IMG/VR virus record: IMGVR_UViG_3300027733_000001
Strand: one strand, 5' to 3'
Source of the DNA: a virus
DNA length: 64,000 nt
Position 1 is the stretch's first letter; each line of letters starts with the position of its first letter. Below the pieces are notes generated by a model. It ran no database searches, was not told where the DNA came from, and saw nothing but the letters and a program-made list of their open reading frames with translations. Of the stretch, positions 7,545 through 19,962 are shown piece by piece. The position numbers and the translations under genes are program-made.

Positions 7545-8027
7545 CTATGTAGTCAGCAGTTTGATTTCTGCAGCAGACAGTCTGTCTAGAGCTGCAGCAA
7601 CTCCTGCAGAATAGCAGAACGTATCGTCTTCGGCACATTCGCTAGATACACAGATATAATTGCCTGATTTGTGTTTGATCACTACGTGCGTGTATCCACC
7701 CTTCGGCAGAAAAACATACATAGGATCTTTGCGAAACGTAGAAGGCACCACGATAGCTCTACCCTGGTGATTTCTGTTCCCCCACACATTGAACTGAGGC
7801 AGATATAGAGACCAGCGGAGATGTTTGACTCTCACACTGTTCCCTGCGACCTGCAGCGACTCTACAGTTACACCATTTTTGGAGGCATATGTAGGTTTGG
7901 TGGGCCTTTTTCTGGCAGACCATTCCCATGTGCGCCCTGTGGCTGTTTCTGTCTTGATGTATTTCTGTCGCTGTTCATCAAACACAACAGTGTACTCTGT
8001 ACTCGGGTTTTGCTCTAGGCTACTCAT
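7545..8027 (-). CDS. hypothetical protein
   Basis: 160-aa ORF coupled to recA. Confidence 0.7.
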   Translation of the reverse strand: MSSLEQNPSTEYTVVFDEQRQKYIKTETATGRTWEWSARKRPTKPTYASKNGVTVESLQVAGNSVRVKHLRWSLYLPQFNVWGNRNHQGRAIVVPSTFRKDPMYVFLPKGGYTHVVIKHKSGNYICVSSECAEDDTFCYSAGVAAALDRLSAAEIKLLTT

Positions 8028-9237
8028 TTAAGTAATCGATTCCTCTTACGTTTTCTACTTCAATCTCAAGGTCGGATTTTTTCTTTCTTCTAACCTTGTT
8101 TGTTTCGGCGATTGCAGCTTCTACTTCAGCTGTAGGCATATCAGGGATACCGAAAGCTTCCCTGATCTTTTCTCTGGCTTGTGGACTACTCTTGATCAAC
8201 AGTGCAAGGTCTTGCTCCCTGAACTTTTTCTCTGTATCAATAACGCCTACAATAGGGGCATCCTCAGTCTCGAGGGAGAATTCCATATTAGGAACCTTCC
8301 ATGTGTACCAGCCACCTGTTTTACCTACGATTGCCGGATACTCTTCACCGAGTTTTCTAATCAGTGGGCTGTACCAGTCGATACCTCCCTTGATATGGAT
8401 GTCGAACTCGATCTTCTGACTGTTACCCTCACGGCCAAGTTTATTACGCTTTACCGTTAAAGTATGGGTGGAACCAGCCTTACGCTTTACACCCATATGG
8501 TCTTCCTCAAGGTTATCCTTGATACGGGCAACCTTGAACTGGTATGTGCTGTTGAACCTCTGAGCTTCGCCACCCAGCAAAGCCTCAGGTTTCTCAGCGC
8601 CGAAGCCTGTCATACCGCCAATCTGCTCGCGTAGCTGGTTGGTAGCCACAAACACCATATTCTCGCACTCTAGGTACGGAATGATATGTCTGTAGAAAGC
8701 AGCCATCAGTTTTGCGTGTTCGCCAGGTTTAGCCTGCCCGATCACATCCTGATCGCGCTCGTAGTCTGTGGCACCGCCAGCAATAGAGTCTAGAGCAATC
8801 AGTACAGGAGTTTTCCCGTCGCTGTGCTTGCTATAGTTCTCGATGATCATCTTACACAATGTCAAGGCCTCTTCGATGCCTCTAGGATTGTGATAGATGA
8901 CGCGGGTTGGGTCGACTCCCTGTAGTTCCATATAGCGGAAGTCAGGCGCACTCTCGGTCTCGATCCAGAACATATACCCTCCAGCTTTCTGGAATATTTT
9001 AGCAAGGTCGAACAGCAAGGTAGTCTTGCTGCAACCCTTCTTCCCGTAAACGAGGTAGCACCGACCGTAGGCCATAAACCTACGGTCAAATGCATACTCC
9101 ATTAGGGGGTTATCCAGCACAATGCCTGTAGGAGGAAGCTCCTTGTCTACAGTATTGAGATCTAGATTAACTGCTTCGTTTTTAAATGTTTTTCCGAAGC
9201 TTTTTTTAACTGCACCTAATAGGCTGTCTATGTTCAT
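8020..9237 (-). CDS. recA: RecA/UvsX recombinase
   Basis: Walker A YGKKGCSKTT, IALDSI, FVATNQLRE, LLGGEAQRF, KRNKL. Confidence 0.92.
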   Translation of the reverse strand: MNIDSLLGAVKKSFGKTFKNEAVNLDLNTVDKELPPTGIVLDNPLMEYAFDRRFMAYGRCYLVYGKKGCSKTTLLFDLAKIFQKAGGYMFWIETESAPDFRYMELQGVDPTRVIYHNPRGIEEALTLCKMIIENYSKHSDGKTPVLIALDSIAGGATDYERDQDVIGQAKPGEHAKLMAAFYRHIIPYLECENMVFVATNQLREQIGGMTGFGAEKPEALLGGEAQRFNSTYQFKVARIKDNLEEDHMGVKRKAGSTHTLTVKRNKLGREGNSQKIEFDIHIKGGIDWYSPLIRKLGEEYPAIVGKTGGWYTWKVPNMEFSLETEDAPIVGVIDTEKKFREQDLALLIKSSPQAREKIREAFGIPDMPTAEVEAAIAETNKVRRKKKSDLEIEVENVRGIDYLNE

Positions 9238-10343: not shown

Positions 10344-10352
10344 ACTATACCA
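10344..10352 (-). promoter_or_regulatory. putative extended -10 promoter for ssb-recA
   Basis: TGGTATAGT on the minus strand, about 50 nt before the A/C-rich leader and ATG 10293. Confidence 0.4.
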
Positions 10353-10938
10353 TGAATACTGACTTGAAGGTTTGCTGCCCTCGTAGCTTATTAAGAAAGG
10401 CCTGCACCATCATGCCTGCAACTATTGTGGGCAGGGTATGACTGATGTTTTGTTCTTTCTCGTAAGCTAGTAAGCAACCTCCTTCTTCCTGACTACTGTC
10501 TACGTACGGTTGAAGCTGCTCCTTGGGTAGGTCGCTGTTGAATAGTGCACCCTGACGGCTCGTGCATCGCCCGTCAACCCAGAACAGCTTATCTTTACCT
10601 TTTTCCCAGCCATAGTCGTAGAGCGACTTACGGAAGGGCATACTATCGACACAACTAAAGATCATGTCGTAGTTTTTAAAGTCCTTCGCTGCCATGCGTT
10701 TCTTGATGCCGTTGACCACGTACTTCTCCTCTAATACACTTACCTTGTAGCGGCCCACATCCTCAAGCTTGAAATTCTGATGCAGTAGATTTTTTAGGTC
10801 CACCGTATCGTCATCATAGATGTCTACCTCAAGGTTAGCATAGTCGAACTGCTTGCGGTTGAAGCCATAATCGAAGAATATTGCGAGAAGGTTCGATCCG
10901 ATACCTCCCGCTCCAGCAATACCAATTTTTTTGAACAT
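10345..10938 (-). CDS. E1-like ThiF/MoeB-family adenylyltransferase (start moved to ATG 10938)
   Basis: IGIAGAGGIGS, DDDTVDLKNLLHQNF, DVGRYKV, SCVDS, VDGR, and a candidate catalytic Cys in GGCLL. Confidence 0.92.
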   Translation of the reverse strand: MFKKIGIAGAGGIGSNLLAIFFDYGFNRKQFDYANLEVDIYDDDTVDLKNLLHQNFKLEDVGRYKVSVLEEKYVVNGIKKRMAAKDFKNYDMIFSCVDSMPFRKSLYDYGWEKGKDKLFWVDGRCTSRQGALFNSDLPKEQLQPYVDSSQEEGGCLLAYEKEQNISHTLPTIVAGMMVQAFLNKLRGQQTFKSVFMV

Positions 10939-10942
10939 GTGT

Positions 10943-11362
10943 TTATGATTTAAGTAGTGATTGTAGTGTTTTCTTAGGGATATATTGCATGACGCACCTG
11001 TCTTCAACCCACTCAGCGTAGCAGAATGTGGCCGGCTTGGGTGCGAATATTACATTGTACTTGAAGCCCTGGAACAGTTTCTCCAGATCTAGGCTACTTG
11101 GAACAGGCGACCATTGAGGATGGGTATGGAAGCTCGCATGGAACTTCCACCCCTCACCCATCTTTGAGAATACATGCTCTCGCAATTCTTGCTGATCAGT
11201 CTCATACAGCCCTGCAGCTACACTAGTACCTGCATGAATGTTTTTGACTTTTACGAAGCAGTACTCGTTGTTTTTGGATAAGATTATACCGCCCTGCTCT
11301 TCAACAGGGTCGGTACAGCTATCCGCCGCTTCTAGCATGGTCTCCATTAGATATGCATTCAT
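10943..11362 (-). CDS. JAB/MPN+ (JAMM) metalloprotease (start moved to ATG 11362)
   Basis: EEQGGII...FHTHP...PSSLD matches the complete E...HxH...PS..D motif. Confidence 0.9.
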   Translation of the reverse strand: MNAYLMETMLEAADSCTDPVEEQGGIILSKNNEYCFVKVKNIHAGTSVAAGLYETDQQELREHVFSKMGEGWKFHASFHTHPQWSPVPSSLDLEKLFQGFKYNVIFAPKPATFCYAEWVEDRCVMQYIPKKTLQSLLKS

Positions 11363-11366
11363 GCTA

Positions 11367-11993
11367 TTAAAACCGCCTTCTAATTGCGTCGATTGCATTG
11401 ATCGTGCTAGTTAGCTGCTCTCCTGCATGGTTTGTAGCGTTGTGTGCGTCTGCTGCACGTAACTTATAGTACGGCTGAGGATTATCCATATAATTGATAC
11501 TCAACACTTTAGTAATTTCTTCAAGTGACTCAGGATGGCTAGAGCTGCCGCATGCCCATATTTGGGCAATATCAAAATGCAGCCGATGGCCTTTTTCCCC
11601 AAAGAACACATCGAAGAAGTTGATACCTAGTGTCAAGGCTCTGCGACAGATGAATGGATATACAAACTTGAGCCCTCTAAACGTATATGTATGTGCATAT
11701 TCAGGCTTTGTAAGCATATCAAACAACTCAGGCAGCAGGTCTTCCTCAAACTCTGAGTTAACAGACTGCACCTTCATGTCCGATATATCCATCCAGGCTA
11801 GTGCACAAATCTTCGCAGTAGCTGCATTGTATGCTGCTTCTTCGAAGTATTTATTTTTTCTCTTTTCGATATCTTCTTCGATCTTTTTAGGATCCTTTAT
11901 GTTCGCTGCCGCCCTGAATGTAGGGGCGGCAGTTATCAGCTGCTCCATAGGTAAAGGAGCAGTCTCTATATGCAGGATGTATTGTTTACGCAT
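11367..11993 (-). CDS. PolB-exo/DnaQ-like 3'-5' exonuclease fold, catalytic residues degenerate
   Basis: LHIETAP (for LDIET), AKICAL, RGLKFVYPFI (for NG..FD.PF), HFDIAQIW, SLEEI; ExoIII Asp absent. Confidence 0.65.
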   Translation of the reverse strand: MRKQYILHIETAPLPMEQLITAAPTFRAAANIKDPKKIEEDIEKRKNKYFEEAAYNAATAKICALAWMDISDMKVQSVNSEFEEDLLPELFDMLTKPEYAHTYTFRGLKFVYPFICRRALTLGINFFDVFFGEKGHRLHFDIAQIWACGSSSHPESLEEITKVLSINYMDNPQPYYKLRAADAHNATNHAGEQLTSTINAIDAIRRRF

Positions 11994-14118
11994 TATTTTC
12001 TACTTTGTTTGTATATATTTTGTTAATGACTTCTACCAGTCCGTCAGTCACATCGCGTTCGGGTACATAGTCATTGTGTACATTCTCGGCTCCGGGTTGC
12101 GCTGCTCCCTTGAGTGTATTGATATGCGCTTGCGTGGTACTATCGTTCTTCAACGCCAGCAGCCTTGCAGCAATATCGTCATAACCTGCGCCTGCATAAT
12201 GCCTGTCGTTTACAATGCAGCGATATTGCTTTGTAGCATAGTCGTACACTTTAGCATTTTTGATAACTACCGCATACTCTCTGAGTGTACCCTTGACGTG
12301 ATATGCACACTCGCCCAAAAACTCTATCAACTTAGCGTCAGTAAGTTTTACGGCAGTAGCCAGGAACTCTTTTGAACGCTCGAGGATTTTTCGTTTTTGC
12401 TCGTTAGCCATATCCATCAGTTTGAGGATATCCTCGTTACTGATAAGCACATCAGGGACTGTTTCATCCGTACCGTCTTCCTTCTTTTGCGTTTTCTGGA
12501 AGGTGCAGCAATCAATCAATACTGCCACCAGTTCTTGTGCACACCAGTTATAGTTACGCACACTGGAACGCTTATAGAAGTAGCCTGGTACTGTCTCGAG
12601 ATAGCTCTTATTGTTGGTCTTTCTGTTAAGGGTCTCTACTTTCTTGATCAGTCTACCTAGGTTCACTCGAACCATACGGTCTTTGTCTACCTGCAGCTTG
12701 AAGTATTTGTCTACTGGATCTATGCACAGCTTGAGGGCTGGTGCAGACTCTGTAGGTTCGGCCTTATGATATTCTTCTCTACTGATGGTAGAATGAATCT
12801 TTACAGGCAGTCCGTTAGAGATGATATCATGGTACTTGATACTCATCCTGCTGATACTCTTCAAGAACAGCTTATAATCATCTGCGTTGTGATAGCAGCT
12901 TGCTCGGCTGATCGCTTTTGCCAGCTCGTCTTTATTGATACGCACCTTGTTGATACGGCGCTGGAATGTATCAGTCAACGTGGCATTGATGGGAATGCCG
13001 TTGATCTTGACCTCCGGCAGCACAAGACTGTCTGCTCCTGCAGCCTGTACTTCTTCCTCAAGTGTATCCTCGGCATCTTTGGTTGCTTCAGTTTCAGGAC
13101 TGCGCTTGTTCAGGCTTTTCTCCATGTGTGCCGCATATATGGCTGTGATAGAGTAGATATCAAACTCACCATTGAAGTTAAGCTCTTTGTACAATACGTC
13201 GAGCAGGTCTTCTGCCTCTATAGAGATCTGATCATATAAGGCAGAGCTCTTCGTGAATACAATGTTATTGATTGTAGTCTTTTCGATCTCTCCAGCCACC
13301 AACTTCCCTACAACCTGCAGCGTACTATTCTGTCTATAGTCTTCTTCAATCGCGTCATGAATGTGTGTTGGAAAAGATTCTTTCTTTTTACCACCATCAT
13401 TCATTTTTTTAGCCATCCTGAGTCGTGTAATTTCGGCGGTGTGTACGTTTATGAAACACCCGTGTTGCAACATATCGGCCAGTTTTGGATCGACTGTACA
13501 CATGGCGAAAATATGTGCCACGTTTACATCATATTCGTTAGCCACGATATGTCGGTAGGTCTTTTTAAACCCAACCTTTTGCTCGACGGTATGTACATAA
13601 AATCCCTTATCAAGATAATCGTACATCTTATCATCATTTCTGCAGATGATAGAAATTATATAATTGCCTACATACCCAGGCTTCTTGGCAGTTATAAACC
13701 TGTACGTGTAGTCTCCTTCCGTAATTTCGAGAGGAGTATCCTCAATTAGTTTAGGCTGATACGAAGACGGTGTTTTACACGGCGTAAGCTTCAGCGTCTT
13801 GAATGATTTGGTGTGGTTTGGATTTATATCCACCAACACATGATTCTTGGTCAGCCCGGTACACAACTCAGCGATCTCGTTGCGTACTCTTGCAGCGCTT
13901 GTCAATAGATTCCCATGAATAGGAATCGCGCGCAATTTACAAAAGGTGTACATCTTAGCCACAGATCTAAACTCTAGACTTGTGTATTGTGTACTGTACT
14001 CCATCTCATAACCTGTATTGTATGTGTACTCTAGTTTTACCTCACTTTTATGAAAGCACTTTGATAAGGCTATATATTCTTTAACAATGTCTTTGAATTT
14101 ATCGGATCTAATATTCAT
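11986..14118 (-). CDS. 710-aa hypothetical protein in the Ubl module; C-terminal Cys-containing domain (candidate E2-like or target)
   Basis: C-terminal HVKGTLREYAVVIKNAKVY...YRCIV...DDIAARLLALKND resembles, by recall, the terminal domain of DUF4132-type proteins. Confidence 0.6.
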   Translation of the reverse strand: MNIRSDKFKDIVKEYIALSKCFHKSEVKLEYTYNTGYEMEYSTQYTSLEFRSVAKMYTFCKLRAIPIHGNLLTSAARVRNEIAELCTGLTKNHVLVDINPNHTKSFKTLKLTPCKTPSSYQPKLIEDTPLEITEGDYTYRFITAKKPGYVGNYIISIICRNDDKMYDYLDKGFYVHTVEQKVGFKKTYRHIVANEYDVNVAHIFAMCTVDPKLADMLQHGCFINVHTAEITRLRMAKKMNDGGKKKESFPTHIHDAIEEDYRQNSTLQVVGKLVAGEIEKTTINNIVFTKSSALYDQISIEAEDLLDVLYKELNFNGEFDIYSITAIYAAHMEKSLNKRSPETEATKDAEDTLEEEVQAAGADSLVLPEVKINGIPINATLTDTFQRRINKVRINKDELAKAISRASCYHNADDYKLFLKSISRMSIKYHDIISNGLPVKIHSTISREEYHKAEPTESAPALKLCIDPVDKYFKLQVDKDRMVRVNLGRLIKKVETLNRKTNNKSYLETVPGYFYKRSSVRNYNWCAQELVAVLIDCCTFQKTQKKEDGTDETVPDVLISNEDILKLMDMANEQKRKILERSKEFLATAVKLTDAKLIEFLGECAYHVKGTLREYAVVIKNAKVYDYATKQYRCIVNDRHYAGAGYDDIAARLLALKNDSTTQAHINTLKGAAQPGAENVHNDYVPERDVTDGLVEVINKIYTNKVENNA

Positions 14119-14140
14119 AAATATGATACGTGTATGTGTA

Positions 14141-14177
14141 TAAAATAAAACCCCCTGACACGCATGGTGCCAGGGGG
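14141..14177 (-). terminator. intrinsic terminator after the Ubl gene
   Basis: Minus strand CCCCCTGGCAC-CATGC-GTGTCAGGGGG followed by TTTTATTTTA. Confidence 0.8.
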
Positions 14178-14202
14178 CTGTAGATTCAGGTGGAAGTAAA
14201 GC

Positions 14203-14559
14203 TTATTCAGCGATACCCAGACCGCCGACGAGCATGCCTGTCAGCAAGACTGCGGGGTCATGCATTGCCTGAAGTTTGGCTTGCAGCTTCTGCACGTTTT
14301 CCTGGCTGCGGAAATTGCCTCCAGTGAATTCAATTTTCTCACCATTGATGAACACCCAACGAGCTTTCTTTTCTGCATTCTCGAGAATGTTCTCGGTGGC
14401 CTGTTCAAGGCTCAGATCTGCGACAGTGCTGTGACCTGTCCGATCAGCGATCTCAATCTTGTACTTCGCAGGAGCTGCAACAATGGCTGCAGTCACAGCT
14501 TGCAGGTTTTCAAGAGCGACGTTGAGGTTTTCGATGGAGGAGTTGTTTGATGTGGTCAT
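14203..14559 (-). CDS. ubiquitin-like (beta-grasp) protein precursor ending VGG-LGIAE
   Basis: KIEIADRTGHS...WVFINGE...VLLTGMLVGG plus a 5-aa extension; ATG 14559 follows an A/C-rich leader (alternative start 14604). Confidence 0.75.
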   Translation of the reverse strand: MTTSNNSSIENLNVALENLQAVTAAIVAAPAKYKIEIADRTGHSTVADLSLEQATENILENAEKKARWVFINGEKIEFTGGNFRSQENVQKLQAKLQAMHDPAVLLTGMLVGGLGIAE

Positions 14560-14654
14560 ACTATTATTGTGTTTGTGGTTAACTGACTGCTTTGCTGTGA
14601 CCATTATAGCTCTTAATGAGCCGCCTGGTCGATTGTTTTGTTCTGGGGATACAA

Positions 14655-15410
14655 TTACCTATGAATAGGAAACTGTATGTGGCGGATATTGCCGGATTTT
14701 AAAGGCCGGTCAATGCAAGCTCGGCATCTTGAGCATGCTCCCTGTTTGTCTATATTTTTTGTCTTTCCGGTTACTTCAGGACAGACCAGTAACGATCTAT
14801 CCCTAGGAAACAGCGGAGGGACATTATCACCCATCCATGCAACAGATATGTTTGGATGGGTTTTAAAGACGTCGTATGTTTTAAGTACTTCATCTTTATT
14901 GTCTTCGTCGCAACTCAATAACAATGTCAGGTTTCTGGTTCCTGCAAGTATAGGTACGGCGAAAAGGCTTCGGGTGTATACCCAAAAATGTATCTGCTGA
15001 AAAGCATCGATGACTGTCTTCCAGGCGTTGACGTAGTTCTCGTTAAAGAATTCTCCGCCTGTATGTATTCGGAAGTAAGGCTGTATATGCCCAGTATCAT
15101 AGTACCATTTTTTGACACTATTGTTGATCACTTCAATCTGTTCCGCTACGGGCTTCTCCCATACAAGGTCTTTGTTATAGTCCTCGTTAGCTTTGTAGTG
15201 CTTATATATCCTACGCAGCGTAGCATCATAGCATACCTTCAGGCAGGCTTCCGTGGCATGTACACATGTACCACCATCTTCTACCCTACCTTGAGATATA
15301 CTGAACGTATTGTTATGTTTGTCGAAAAATCTGACTTTGCTGTTATTAGTCAGCTTAAAGCTTGGACATTTATTCATATCAAGCTTTCCACTCCCAGGTA
15401 CTCTTTTCAA
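14655..15410 (-). CDS. GP88-like radical-SAM-type Fe-S protein
   Basis: C-x6-C-x3-C (CVHATEACLKVC), YFRIHTGGEFF, FWVYTRS, and C-terminal CP...CSRCRAC. Confidence 0.75.
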   Translation of the reverse strand: MKRVPGSGKLDMNKCPSFKLTNNSKVRFFDKHNNTFSISQGRVEDGGTCVHATEACLKVCYDATLRRIYKHYKANEDYNKDLVWEKPVAEQIEVINNSVKKWYYDTGHIQPYFRIHTGGEFFNENYVNAWKTVIDAFQQIHFWVYTRSLFAVPILAGTRNLTLLLSCDEDNKDEVLKTYDVFKTHPNISVAWMGDNVPPLFPRDRSLLVCPEVTGKTKNIDKQGACSRCRACIDRPLKSGNIRHIQFPIHR

Positions 15411-18072
15411 AGTTCCAGGCAGTTTCTTTTTCGAACACTTTTTCCTTACCCTTCCAACGATCCATAATAGCTAGCTCACAGCCTACGTTATCGCCTGTAG
15501 CCAGCTTTGTCTGGTGACAGAAGACATGCTTCAGGACTTCCTGGATATAATTATCTTTGCACAGGTCTTTGTGTACTGCCCAATAGCCTGCATCATGTAC
15601 AGTATTTATCGGGTAGATATACTTCATCCACAGTCCTTCCTTTTTAAGGACGTTTTTCAGATTTACCGAAGCCTCCCACATGAACCAGGCAAGTTCACTA
15701 GCTACAGGGAAAGCCAGGCTCTCATTCATCCATCCTGCAAGGATACCGAAGTTATCAGTGGACTCATAGTTCAATACAAGCCCTCTAGCATTCGTGATAC
15801 GCTGATTGTTTTTTACTTCATTCGTGCATCTATCACGATATTGCATATACCTCTTATATCTGCCCCAGGTTTCCAATGCATACTCTAGTGTAGCCAGACC
15901 TACATGTAGACCGTTCTCTGCATAGATATCAGCCTGGATAGGCATGGCGGCAAACTTCAAACCGGCAGTATAGGACACCCTGAAAGTAATACTTTTCGCG
16001 ATAACATACTTACTCACGTCTTTTTTAGTGAGAGTGTGATCGTTAAAGTATTCTCGCATCTTGGTCTGATGGAAGTTGCCTGCTCTAATGTCATGGATGA
16101 AATCTTCATCCTGACTCAGAAACGCCATAATCGCCAAGTCTGCCCCGGCGACGTCAAGCTCACACCAATGATAGTCTGGACTACCTGTGCAGAATATGTT
16201 CCTGATGTTCTTCGGTAGTTTATGCTCCAGCTTTTTCTGTTCGTCACTATTGAGTTTTCCATATCCAGGTATGAAAATATCTGGAATATAGGCCAACACT
16301 TTCGAGGCAGGATTTTGTACATTAGGACTGCTACTCGCCCTGAAGTTCTTCAAGCATTCAAAGAAGCTTGCATGTACTTTACCGTCATTACATATGGCCG
16401 CCCAATAGCTCTGCTTTAACGGCTCATCCATGTCCTCGTCAAGGTCACTATCAGTGTCTAATACCACACCTTTCCTGCTGAGGAACTTTGTGGCGAAAAC
16501 CCCTAGTCGACCCACACTGAGTAACAACTCAATAGCTTTATATACTGCCTGAACAGGCTCATAGTCAGGCTCTTTATCTAGTAGCTCCTCTAACTGGAAC
16601 TTAATAGTGGCCAAACTTTTGCTGTTTGTGCTTGGAGCATACATCTGTTGTGTTTGAGGCTTTTGGTTGTCGTACCAGGCCTTGCTTTTTGGACTTTTAC
16701 CTGCCTTTGTATAATAGGCAGGCTCCACATTTAAGACCTCAAACAGCAGGTGTTTCTTCTGTGCAGAACTATTCGGATTAAAGTCCTCAACATTGAACCT
16801 GTCTTTCAGATAGTCTACCAGCGTCTTCTTTAGCTCCTCGTATTTGACGCTGTACTTCTCTGTGATATCGTTCAGCACATTTTTATCTACAGCTATACCT
16901 GTCAACTCCATGTCTGTGAAGTAATGGGTTAGCGGCAGATAAATATCGTAGTATACGGACTTCAGGTGTTCGGGGAACTGACGCATCATTCTAAGACACG
17001 CTTCTCGGTGACTCACAGCGTCACCAGCGCAATAGTAGTAGTAGATCTCGGGCTCCAGGAACTTCATCTTGGCCAACTCACTCTTGGCTAGTTTATGTTC
17101 CTTCATTTTCCTGTTTAGCGCTGTGTAGTACGGAGGGTAGTCTGTAAACATCTTGATACCTGTCTCCAATCCTTTACTCAGACGACTATCAAAAAACGCT
17201 ACAGCCTTCATGCCGTCGAAGGCCAGCGTTTCGTCAGGAAGTTTGAACCCTCTGTGTCGCAACCTAAGGTCGTCAGCACGGATATTCCAGCCCAGTCTCT
17301 TTGCATCAGGATGCTCTAGCAGAAGCTTCATGGTGTCTAGAAGCTCTCTATTCTCTGTGACTCCGTCCTTGCTGATATTCAATACTATCGCCAAATCTTT
17401 CTGACAGCAGTACTGAAACTCGTACATTACTTCATCATCAGTGAATTTGCTACCGAACCACTCAGCGTCATAACCTACAGTAAGCATTCCCTTATCTATG
17501 TACTGCTGCAATATTCTAGTATTTTCAGCAGGGTCATCGACAATGATATACTTATACTCCTCGTATTTCAGGTTGTTATCCAGTACCCGTTTTGCGAGGA
17601 GAAAGTTCTCTCTGAACTCAGGACGTTTTGTAGGGTCCATCGCCACCAGCATACCAGGCGCATAGTTAGCTAGCACTTTGCCGTACGGGGTGTCGGTAAC
17701 TTCTCCAATATAGTCTCCCATCTTTATATTAGAGCGCATGATACGCTTGAAGACTTCTGCACCTAGAGGAATAATGAGTTTTGGTTTAATTGCCTCAATC
17801 TCTCTATCCAGCTCCTCGCGCCATTCCTCAATGTCTTCTGCAGAAGGCTTACTCTTGCTACCTATGCCGTGCTTGACCATGCCTGTGAAATGTACATTTT
17901 CTAACGGAATACCTGCGGCATTCAGTGCATTGTGCACTTCATCGGCAGCAAAGCCTTTCTTACCAAAAGCTCTGGCTTCCAGGTCGTCCTTATTAGGATG
18001 ACTGAACACTATCAGAAGCTCTGGTGAGCAGCCTTCAGCTACGGGTGTTTCTATCTTTACTTTAATAGCCAT
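15379..18072 (-). CDS. polA: family A DNA polymerase with an N-terminal UDG-like domain and a 3'-5' exonuclease domain
   Basis: ExoI YDAEW, ExoII NIRAD, ExoIII YCAGD; SSPNVQN; motif A LDVAGADL, motif B AKSITFRVSY, motif C VHDA. Confidence 0.92.
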   Translation of the reverse strand: MAIKVKIETPVAEGCSPELLIVFSHPNKDDLEARAFGKKGFAADEVHNALNAAGIPLENVHFTGMVKHGIGSKSKPSAEDIEEWREELDREIEAIKPKLIIPLGAEVFKRIMRSNIKMGDYIGEVTDTPYGKVLANYAPGMLVAMDPTKRPEFRENFLLAKRVLDNNLKYEEYKYIIVDDPAENTRILQQYIDKGMLTVGYDAEWFGSKFTDDEVMYEFQYCCQKDLAIVLNISKDGVTENRELLDTMKLLLEHPDAKRLGWNIRADDLRLRHRGFKLPDETLAFDGMKAVAFFDSRLSKGLETGIKMFTDYPPYYTALNRKMKEHKLAKSELAKMKFLEPEIYYYYCAGDAVSHREACLRMMRQFPEHLKSVYYDIYLPLTHYFTDMELTGIAVDKNVLNDITEKYSVKYEELKKTLVDYLKDRFNVEDFNPNSSAQKKHLLFEVLNVEPAYYTKAGKSPKSKAWYDNQKPQTQQMYAPSTNSKSLATIKFQLEELLDKEPDYEPVQAVYKAIELLLSVGRLGVFATKFLSRKGVVLDTDSDLDEDMDEPLKQSYWAAICNDGKVHASFFECLKNFRASSSPNVQNPASKVLAYIPDIFIPGYGKLNSDEQKKLEHKLPKNIRNIFCTGSPDYHWCELDVAGADLAIMAFLSQDEDFIHDIRAGNFHQTKMREYFNDHTLTKKDVSKYVIAKSITFRVSYTAGLKFAAMPIQADIYAENGLHVGLATLEYALETWGRYKRYMQYRDRCTNEVKNNQRITNARGLVLNYESTDNFGILAGWMNESLAFPVASELAWFMWEASVNLKNVLKKEGLWMKYIYPINTVHDAGYWAVHKDLCKDNYIQEVLKHVFCHQTKLATGDNVGCELAIMDRWKGKEKVFEKETAWNFEKSTWEWKA

Positions 18073-18073
18073 A

Positions 18074-18544
18074 TTAAGTTTCCATACCGTCGAAGGAGAG
18101 ACATCCTGCGACAGTGTCTATGATATAGTTTCCGAAGGTTAGTATTCCATCCCGAGTAAAGCACAATGTCTCTTCAGGGAAATCTACTAAACGCCCAACA
18201 TTAGCTATATCTGCTTCTGGAGCGTATTCGTGAGGTACAAGACCTAATAGTCCTGAGTCTACAGTATAATTACCGCCCAGTTGATCTGTATAGCCGCCAT
18301 CTCCACAATGTGTAGAGAACGATAATACTTTCATTCCGTTAGGCAGCGCTGTGTAATGTCCATTGAGTGTACAGTCTAACGCTGTAGTCGTTTCCTGTGC
18401 GCCTAGCGATTTATATTCTTCGCTTTCTAGCGCACATGCCTGTAAATAAGCAGACCAATCAGCACTATCAGTGATTACATAGCACGGATCAGTCAGCCAG
18501 TATTTTCCTGGCGGTACAATGAACGAACGATATACATTTTTCAT
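18074..18544 (-). CDS. conserved phage hypothetical protein
   Basis: PGKYWLTDPCYV, THCGDGGY and VDSGLLGLVP motifs. Confidence 0.7.
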   Translation of the reverse strand: MKNVYRSFIVPPGKYWLTDPCYVITDSADWSAYLQACALESEEYKSLGAQETTTALDCTLNGHYTALPNGMKVLSFSTHCGDGGYTDQLGGNYTVDSGLLGLVPHEYAPEADIANVGRLVDFPEETLCFTRDGILTFGNYIIDTVAGCLSFDGMET

Positions 18545-18546
18545 AT

Positions 18547-19962
18547 CTATACTAGTGAATGGAATCCTGTACCCGGGGAAGGTAGGAAATCCGTGTTTTT
18601 AGCTGGGATATTTTCAAAATTGCTTTTACCCATCTTTTGTTTCTTGTCCGCAGTTTCCTCTTTTGAGCGGGCTTCGGCTCCTTTTTCCTGATACTCAAAA
18701 TTCATAAATTCCAGCTCTGCTAGATAGTCGAGACGGAAGTTTTTTGCGTGTCGGGATTTTATGGAGAATATACTGACTATACTGTCCTGAGGACTGTCGC
18801 GACCTATAGCCAAAACCATATCTGCAGGACGCAGAATGCCTTTGAAGCCACTGATCTCGTCGTTACTGAACGACCTCTTCATCTTTCCCCCTGCCTGATG
18901 AAGCAACCACACACTGAACATATGTTTACCACCTATCAAATGGTTCGATAAATCATCCACCTCAAAGGCTACTTTACTATATCTTTGCCAGTCTGCATCA
19001 AACTTAGCAGATGTGGTGAGATAGTCCATCTGATCAATATATACCAGGTCTGGATGCCAGCCTTTTTCCTCGTAAAGCTGATCAAGATAATTGGCTATAT
19101 ATTGTGCTGTGACTGGTGCAGCACTACGTAAATCATGCACTTTTAAATGTTCAGCAGCCAGTTTATCGTCTTCTGTTCTGTTTGCATGAGCTGTCCTAAG
19201 ATCTTGTTGCGCGAAAGTGCAGCCTCTATGTAGAGAGGTATACGGTATTCGATACAGGTTGCTATATATGCGGTTGCAGATGTTTACCGCAGGCTCCTCG
19301 ATACTCAGATACAGCACATTTCTTTTCTGTCTGGCGTTTTGTATTGCACTATATGTGCCCATGGCTGTTTTGCCGCTGCCTGAGTGTCCTAGAATTATCC
19401 CGTATTCCTGGTATCCTAGCCCTTGAGCAACAGCGTCAACCATGCCAAAACCTGTACCCATGGTTTCTCGATGCTCTACGAAAACCAATTCCTGCAGAGG
19501 GCAGTACTCTTTGATACCTTCCGCAGAATTTTTAAGGTCTAGATCGTTTACCAGCTTCGAAGCTGCACTAACCAGCTCCCTAGGGTTATTGGCTTTATCT
19601 ATTTTTAGAGTTTGGAACCTTCTGAACGCTATAAAGTCTGGTAGGTTTTTTAAGACATACTCTGCACCCAATGGTACAGCATCGTCATATAGGTATTCCC
19701 AGAACCCTAGTACTTGCGACATATCAGAAATGCCGCTTCCTCGTTTAGATAACTCCGGTTTTACCTCAAGTAAACATACCTGAGGATTGATAGGTGCATA
19801 GCCTATCTTCATAGCTGCAGCTACAAAAGCGTTGTAGATATTAAGTGTACCGAAATCCTCAGGTACGACCTTGAGATCTATAGCCTTCAGCATCACGCTT
19901 CGATCCCTATACAGGCATTTTATAACCAGCTCAATATATTCTGCTTCGTTGTATTTTTCCAT
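18547..19962 (-). CDS. dnaB: DnaB-like replicative helicase
   Basis: Walker A GHSGSGKT, YLSIEE, VYIDQMD, LLHQ, ADMVLAI, KSRH. Confidence 0.88.
   Translation of the reverse strand: MEKYNEAEYIELVIKCLYRDRSVMLKAIDLKVVPEDFGTLNIYNAFVAAAMKIGYAPINPQVCLLEVKPELSKRGSGISDMSQVLGFWEYLYDDAVPLGAEYVLKNLPDFIAFRRFQTLKIDKANNPRELVSAASKLVNDLDLKNSAEGIKEYCPLQELVFVEHRETMGTGFGMVDAVAQGLGYQEYGIILGHSGSGKTAMGTYSAIQNARQKRNVLYLSIEEPAVNICNRIYSNLYRIPYTSLHRGCTFAQQDLRTAHANRTEDDKLAAEHLKVHDLRSAAPVTAQYIANYLDQLYEEKGWHPDLVYIDQMDYLTTSAKFDADWQRYSKVAFEVDDLSNHLIGGKHMFSVWLLHQAGGKMKRSFSNDEISGFKGILRPADMVLAIGRDSPQDSIVSIFSIKSRHAKNFRLDYLAELEFMNFEYQEKGAEARSKEETADKKQKMGKSNFENIPAKNTDFLPSPGTGFHSLV

Follow-up and report, generated by a model that had tools for sequence, protein, structure and literature searches.

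Does an uncultured freshwater phage encode its own ubiquitin-like protein (Ubl) tag, together with enzymes to process, attach, and remove it? This question is raised by a 64,000-nt stretch of the IMG/VR virus record IMGVR_UViG_3300027733_000001. We will call this stretch the window; it is part of a 167.7-kb record from a freshwater metagenome, which is 86% complete. On the minus strand of the window, between polymerase and recombinase genes, there is a 118-aa gene that ends with two glycines (GG) and a short tail. It is followed by a hairpin and then by genes for a 710-aa protein, a JAB/JAMM metalloprotease (JAB), and a ThiF-type E1 enzyme. We propose that the 118-aa gene encodes a Ubl precursor and that these genes comprise a phage-encoded Ubl system, with trimming of the precursor, transfer by an E2-like domain, and a stoichiometry that is set by transcriptional read-through. 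Taking all of these parts jointly, we give this proposal a probability of roughly 0.55.

We predict that the system would operate as follows. The tail would be removed after the GG before the E1 adenylates the C-terminal glycine. The JAB of the cassette is the likely trimming enzyme, and it is also the likely deconjugase. The activated tag would pass to Cys634 of an E2-like domain in the 710-aa protein, which would then hand it on to phage or host proteins. The Ubl gene would be its own transcription unit, with a candidate operator, a promoter, and a terminator. The enzyme genes begin at 14118, with 20 nt between the U-tract of the terminator and this first start codon. They would be reached mainly by read-through, so that the consumable tag would outnumber the enzymes.

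A conserved diglycine followed by a variable tail

The initial annotation described the end of the 118-aa gene as V-G-G-L-G-I-A-E-stop, and the codons on the minus strand at 14229-14203 (GTC GGC GGT CTG GGT ATC GCT GAA TAA) read exactly so. It also proposed checking whether homologues conserve the GG and have variable tails, and this is what we found. There are 52 close homologues of the Ubl, and in the 43 that were aligned, G112 and G113 are invariant while everything C-terminal of them varies. A profile search over 1.84 billion representatives added more distant members. In the resulting family, 113 of the 114 members have GG at this site, and the remaining one has AG. The GG is mostly preceded by LV, LQ, LI, or LR; LVGG is the commonest context (67/114). 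The tails have lengths of 1-158 residues, with 2 residues being the commonest, and the residue after the GG is not conserved. Just one database member ends with a bare GG.

The tails are similarly diverse in the 13 related viral loci: we found LLQELLSLE, QAVLFDIE, TK, LK, EI, HK, VK, AAQE, RK, and TKA, while two loci (L013 and L014) have none. In these two loci, the tag ends at the bare GG, yet the JAB is still present. This implies that the cap is dispensable and that the JAB has another conserved job, which is probably deconjugation. The initial annotation had suggested that gating by the JAB gives a timing switch. That idea was speculative, and because the cap is usual but not obligatory, we do not adopt it.

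At the other extreme, the tag can be fused to another domain. In L017, a much more distant contig, the tag (7986-8471) has 161 amino acids, with the GG at residues 85-86, and then a 75-residue domain that is conserved among a dozen such fusions. This fusion could become an E1 substrate only if it is cut after the GG. Other fusions of a domain to Ubl-GG are P0157, P0160, P0164, P0166, P0172, P0176, P0178, P0182, P0200, P0201, and P0205. The fused domain has about 70-150 amino acids and contains the motifs P-L-S-S-V-L and V-S-D-Y-N-G. Cleavage of these proteins would free the conserved domain, as with fusions of ubiquitin to ribosomal proteins.

The 118-aa protein has no family in Pfam, NCBIfam, PHROGs, or PADLOC, and the ESM Atlas gave no usable match. 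The evidence for its fold is weak, with VIA fold matches that include MoaD and ThiS; a beta-grasp Ubl is plausible. As for the extent of the gene, we favor 14559 as the most likely start, since this is also where the homologues and the copy in the database have theirs. A longer open reading frame of 133 amino acids, from 14604, overlaps the TATAAT box of the putative promoter.

A conserved terminator and a candidate operator

The initial annotation also noted a strong hairpin and U-tract before the enzyme genes. The hairpin (14179-14149) has 13 pairs, 8 of which are G-C, with a loop of 5, and it is followed by TTTTATTTTAT. Its minimum free energy is -24.3 kcal/mol, as compared to -13.5 +/- 2.6 for 200 dinucleotide shuffles (z = -4.18); none of the 200 shuffles folds as well. 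Among the 10 terminator-like sites in positions 11000-19000, it has the longest stem, and the next longest has 9 pairs.

This element is real and conserved: a hairpin (-21.7 to -29.2 kcal/mol) and a T-run follow the Ubl stop codon in all 13 of the other loci, including L017. In an alignment of the hairpins, 6 of the 10 consensus pairs show double compensatory changes. A conserved GC-rich hairpin with a U-tract at the end of a gene is, by these sequence features, an intrinsic (Rho-independent) terminator. All 15 loci that we examined have the hairpin and U-tract after the Ubl gene, and in 14 of them, the next gene starts 15-51 nt past the hairpin. There is thus hardly space for a separate promoter in between, and transcription probably reaches the enzyme genes by read-through of the terminator. 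This arrangement fits the suggestion from the initial annotation that the tag is made in excess over the enzymes.

Upstream of the Ubl gene, we identified a match to the sigma-70 promoter consensus, with similar boxes visible in L002, L003, L006, and L008 and not clear in the other loci. Beside it is an imperfect palindrome that is a candidate operator. In the relatives (L002-L014), the palindrome takes the form TGTTC-CCCC(C)A-GAACA. Its core, CCCCAGRACA, lies upstream of the Ubl gene in the window, as it does in 11 of the 12 loci for which there is upstream sequence, between flanks that have diverged. This core has a single occurrence in the window and, likewise, a single one in the entire 167.7-kb record. 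The palindrome is absent from L017. A unique and conserved palindrome beside a promoter-like site suggests gene-specific regulation of the Ubl.

The JAB protease and the E1 enzyme

Both enzymes named by the initial annotation lie downstream of the Ubl gene in each locus, and the JAB motif is intact: E...HxHx7Sx2D is complete and is conserved in 11 loci. The E1 gene is about 3.3 kb downstream of the Ubl gene on the same strand, with the same order in every locus that reaches that far. These are the only JAB and the only ThiF protein in the 167.7-kb record.

The E1 family comprises 248 homologue clusters, nearly all of which have 197-198 amino acids and the ThiF domain only. GAGGIGS, Cys125, and Cys155 do not vary within the family, L017 among them, and the Asp motifs are kept. 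The family also has an invariant histidine (NLLHQ) in place of the arginine of the NLxRQ motif in ThiF, MoeB, Uba, and Cap2. Searching the PDB with the single E1 sequence, using phmmer, gave no match, and a profile of the family matched all classes of E1 equally weakly (E of 0.013 or worse). Matches in NCBIfam include ThiF adenylyltransferases. We considered whether these genes belong to a PRTRC system (TIGR03734-03742) and rejected this: the E1 scores 46.1 bits against PRTRC_ThiF, whose cut-off is 144.75, and no other PRTRC model matches the proteins of the cassette.

In L009 (9594-11317), the E1 gene is split, with residues 38-69 and 70-220 parted by about 1.2 kb of inserted DNA. This could be an intron, the insertion of a homing endonuclease, or an artefact of assembly.

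A possible E2-like domain in the 710-aa protein

We found about 85 clusters of homologues for the 710-aa protein, and every one of them comes from uncultured contigs. The protein has no family or domain in Pfam, NCBIfam, PHROGs, or PADLOC, none of which detected a canonical E2 family either, and no usable match in the ESM Atlas. Its predicted structure is confident (mean predicted local distance difference test score, pLDDT, of 86). When we compared the whole model to the PDB with Foldseek, we found nothing; in BFVD, Foldseek found only three matches (A0A516M0H5, A0A516MG04, and A0A516LSW3), which are unnamed viral proteins of 416-452 amino acids (probability 1.0).

With an exhaustive aligner, residues of about 572-683 repeatedly matched the UBC-like fold, and the match was weak. 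A profile of this C-terminal domain gave nothing meaningful against the PDB. Conservation in the protein is highest at and around Cys634. All of 65 sequences, with identities as low as 31%, have this cysteine, as does L017. In the structure model, the order of secondary structure elements around Cys634 matches that of E2s. Based on the model, the C-terminal domain weakly resembles the E2/UEV/RWD fold.

Organization of the cassette

The Ubl gene is part of a replication block on the minus strand, which encodes a primase, a DnaB-type helicase, a family A polymerase, GP88 (PF17338, with a cysteine cluster), the Ubl, the 710-aa protein, a 208-aa protein, the JAB, the E1, an unassigned 349-aa protein, and a UvsX/RecA recombinase. 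There is little space between the enzyme genes, which overlap by 8 nt or are 4 nt apart. We found cassettes that are headed by the Ubl in 14 phage contigs and in the distant relative L017. Across these 15 loci, the JAB and the E1 strictly co-occur with the Ubl in a fixed order. Every locus that is long enough has the same gene order: usually GP88, then the Ubl, the 710-aa protein, an optional 208-aa gene, the JAB, the E1, the 349-aa protein, and the recombinase. L017 keeps this order, with identities of 30% for its homologue of the 710-aa protein, 40% for the JAB, and 52% for the E1.

Two members of the neighborhood are variable. GP88 is upstream of the Ubl in most loci; it was not detected in L014, and in L013 and L017 there are extra genes between GP88 and the Ubl. 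The 208-aa gene is found only in the window, L006, L008, and L009, and is absent from the other loci. It has only faint, sub-threshold matches to PolB exonucleases (in Pfam and NCBIfam). None of the cultured phages in INPHARED has a region related to this one, and we found no relatives of the Ubl or of the 710-aa protein there either. Features are listed in Table 1.

Table 1. Coordinates of the Ubl cassette and its predicted elements in the window
Feature	Coordinates	Strand	Comment
Candidate operator	14639..14653	minus	Imperfect palindrome TGTAT-CCCC-AGAACA, directly upstream of the promoter-like site
Sigma-70-like promoter	14603..14632	minus	Putative; TCGACC, 18 nt, TATAAT; 10/12 match to consensus
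Ubl precursor gene	14203..14559	minus	118 aa; likely start ATG 14559
Variable N-terminal helix of Ubl		minus	
Beta-grasp core of Ubl (putative)		minus	Residues 33-107
GG of Ubl	14226-14221	minus	Residues 112-113
Tail of Ubl	14220-14206	minus	LGIAE
Stop codon of Ubl	14205-14203	minus	
Intrinsic terminator	14139..14179	minus	13-bp stem, 5-nt loop, U-tract
710-aa protein	11986..14118	minus	Without family assignment
E2/UEV/RWD-like C-terminal domain (weak resemblance)	12070-12405	minus	Residues about 572-683 of the 710-aa protein
Cys634 of 710-aa protein	12217-12219	minus	Invariant; Cys408 likewise
Optional 208-aa gene	11367..11993	minus	8-nt overlap with the stop end of the 710-aa gene
JAB/JAMM metalloprotease	10943..11362	minus	Probable start Met13 of a 151-aa open reading frame; PF14464 at 5.7e-8
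Minimal ThiF-type E1	10345..10938	minus	197 aa; starts 4 nt after the JAB stop; PF00899 at 4.3e-18

Alternative roles for the cassette

A Ubl with a JAB and an E1 might instead be a sulfur carrier, akin to ThiS, MoaD, or QbsE: the JAB would trim it, the E1 would adenylate it for conversion to a thiocarboxylate, and the sulfur would be used to modify a small molecule or a nucleic acid. Perhaps GP88 or the 710-aa protein would be the enzyme that uses the sulfur. The E1 is minimal, at 197 amino acids with a ThiF domain only, and matches ThiF adenylyltransferases; MoaD and ThiS are among the fold matches of the Ubl; no canonical E2 family was detected in the four collections; and GP88, with its cysteine cluster, is upstream in most loci. 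Capped sulfur carriers that are trimmed by JAB enzymes are also known, namely QbsE with QbsD and CysO with Mec+. But in the 86%-complete record, rhodanese (PF00581), cysteine desulfurase (PF00266), and PP-loop (PF01171) domains are absent, while controls were positive; the host could supply these activities, and MoaE and ThiG were not searched for. Nor does the E1 have a rhodanese fusion. GP88 is not strictly linked to the Ubl, as described above; the neighbor that is constant is the 710-aa protein, with its E2-like domain and invariant cysteine. Also, a carrier that is recycled catalytically would not be expected to have its own promoter and terminator for high output. We consider a sulfur-carrier role to be rather unlikely.

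If the tag is conjugated, it might not need an E2, as with the archaeal SAMPs or Urm1. The E1 and the JAB would then suffice, and the 710-aa protein would be the main target or a substrate adaptor. The resemblance of the E1 to the minimal E1s of systems that lack E2s, the weakness of the match to the E2 fold, and the lack of any E2 match in Pfam, NCBIfam, PHROGs, or PADLOC are all consistent with this. On the other hand, it would not account for the conservation around Cys634, which exceeds that of the rest of the 710-aa protein and includes a cysteine that is retained across 65 sequences and in L017, or for the E2-like order of secondary structure elements around it. We view conjugation without an E2 as quite unlikely. 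It is more improbable still that the 118-aa protein is a non-covalent accessory factor for replication or recombination, with its GG end kept for binding and with the hairpin as an ordinary terminator within an operon that has no role in stoichiometry. Such a role could be argued for from the location of the gene between polymerase and recombinase genes, from the weak evidence for the fold, and from the distant tandem relatives in marine bacterial-type contigs without an E1 or JAB within 8 kb. Against it, the JAB and the E1 accompany the Ubl in a fixed order in 15 loci, and invariance at exactly the GG, followed by a freely-varying tail, along with fusion precursors, are signatures of E1 substrates.

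Returning to the proposed Ubl system, a broader claim would be that uncultured freshwater phages of a large clade have a full Ubl conjugation pathway of their own. The tag would belong to a new Ubl family and would be made as a capped or fused precursor from an insulated gene with separate regulation; the JAB would both trim and deconjugate it, the E1 would be minimal, and Cys634 in the E2-like domain of a new 710-aa enzyme would carry it. The targets during infection would be replication or recombination proteins of the phage or defence proteins of the host. We hold this broader claim tentatively, at a little short of even odds.

Comparison to known systems

Ubl conjugation in prokaryotes was recently shown to be a weapon of bacteria against phages, in the Bil and CBASS (Cap2/Cap3) systems and probably in Bub. 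Among the papers that could be searched, none dealt with a Ubl/E1/JAB cassette encoded by a phage, and none with DUF7737. In a 2006 survey of prokaryotic ubiquitin-like systems, the only phage proteins covered were the Ubls of lambdoid tail assembly (PMC1779556).

One of the most similar known systems is Bil (BilABCD), which is an ISG15-like anti-phage system of bacteria. Its JAB was shown to cut exactly after the conserved glycine of the Ubl and to remove conjugates (PMC10557695; 10.1101/2023.09.04.556158), and the glycine of its Ubl is followed by up to nine extra residues (PMC10557695). As in Bil, the phage cassette combines four functions (a Ubl, an E2 or here a possible E2-like domain, a JAB, and an E1), and the tag is capped as a precursor. 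Unlike Bil, which is an anti-phage defence operon of the host, the cassette is encoded by a phage within its replication genes, and a dedicated terminator insulates the tag gene. The proteins differ as well. Apart from weak matches for the JAB and the E1, none of the Bil or PADLOC models matches the phage Ubl, E1, or 710-aa protein; the E1, at 197 amino acids, lacks the inserted mobile domain with the catalytic cysteine that is found in BilD; and the possible E2-like fold occurs as a C-terminal domain within a multidomain protein of 710 amino acids, rather than as a stand-alone protein like BilB.

Bub (bacterial ubiquitination-like) operons reportedly use oxyester intermediates and encode a fusion of a peptidase and an E1 along with a serine protease (PMC11601596). 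The phage cassette differs in that its peptidase is a separate JAB and its candidate transfer residue is a cysteine, and we found no sequence match between the two.

Like ThiS or MoaD with ThiF or MoeB, the cassette pairs a minimal E1 with a putative beta-grasp protein that carries a GG in its C-terminal part, and, as in the gene neighborhoods of JAB-linked sulfur carriers (PMC1779556), it has a JAB that could expose or regenerate the GG. It differs in its constant E2-like partner, its location in a replication module, and the lack of rhodanese, cysteine desulfurase, and PP-loop proteins in the phage record. C-terminal extensions or fusions are also found in the precursors of eukaryotic ubiquitin, SUMO, and NEDD8 and in the ubiquitin of the archaeon Caldiarchaeum, which is processed by Rpn11 (PMC6043591); there, a dedicated protease removes them after the GG. 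The tag of L017, with its fused 75-aa domain, is analogous to the fusions of ubiquitin to ribosomal proteins. We detected no sequence relationship between the phage tags and these precursors.

The crAss-like phages may have a counterpart of this cassette. The E1's only match in INPHARED is a protein annotated as "ThiF" from a crAss-like phage, with 33% identity over 41% of its length. In phiCrAss001 and in cr85_1 (MT774390), as in our cassette, a ThiF-type E1 in the replication module is preceded by a gene with a metalloprotease domain and by two unassigned genes. The other genes are not detectably related to those of our cassette. In cr85_1 (L099, 1855-5570), the genes lie beside the primase and encode a 218-aa protein, an unassigned 371-aa protein, a "metalloprotease domain" protein, and ThiF. 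By eye only, the 218-aa protein has a beta-grasp-like N-terminus. These genes are possibly an analogous Ubl cassette in Crassvirales.

If phages do encode Ubl tagging among their replication genes, then viruses of bacteria also make use of Ubls, much as eukaryotic viruses exploit ubiquitin. Possible uses include control of the phage's replication or recombination proteins and counter-defence. The cassette offers several handles for study: a defined and predicted cleavage site after Gly113, a candidate active site at Cys634, and a natural design in which the substrate would exceed the enzymes. It would also be a compact set of parts for biochemical and structural studies: the E1 has about 200 amino acids, the JAB about 140, and the Ubl about 85-118.

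Distant relatives of the Ubl in marine contigs

The profile search also reached proteins with more than one copy of the Ubl. We found no tandem Ubl repeats within the phage cassette itself. The closer di-Ubl proteins are P0152 and P0165. More distant relatives, with two or three repeats that each end in GG, are found in marine contigs (L019-L098), such as L074 (7875-8474) and L053 (8031-8468). We had taken the tandem matches as support for a polyubiquitin-like arrangement and have withdrawn this: the 80 marine loci lack an E1, a JAB, or a homologue of the 710-aa protein within 8 kb. In L074, which is the one marine locus that we scanned, the neighbors are of bacterial type and include SDR, Rieske, and AAA+ ATPase proteins. 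In both L074 and L053, an open reading frame of 381-382 amino acids lies about 300 nt downstream of the tandem Ubl, and the copy in L074 is the AAA+ ATPase, which is clamp-loader-like.
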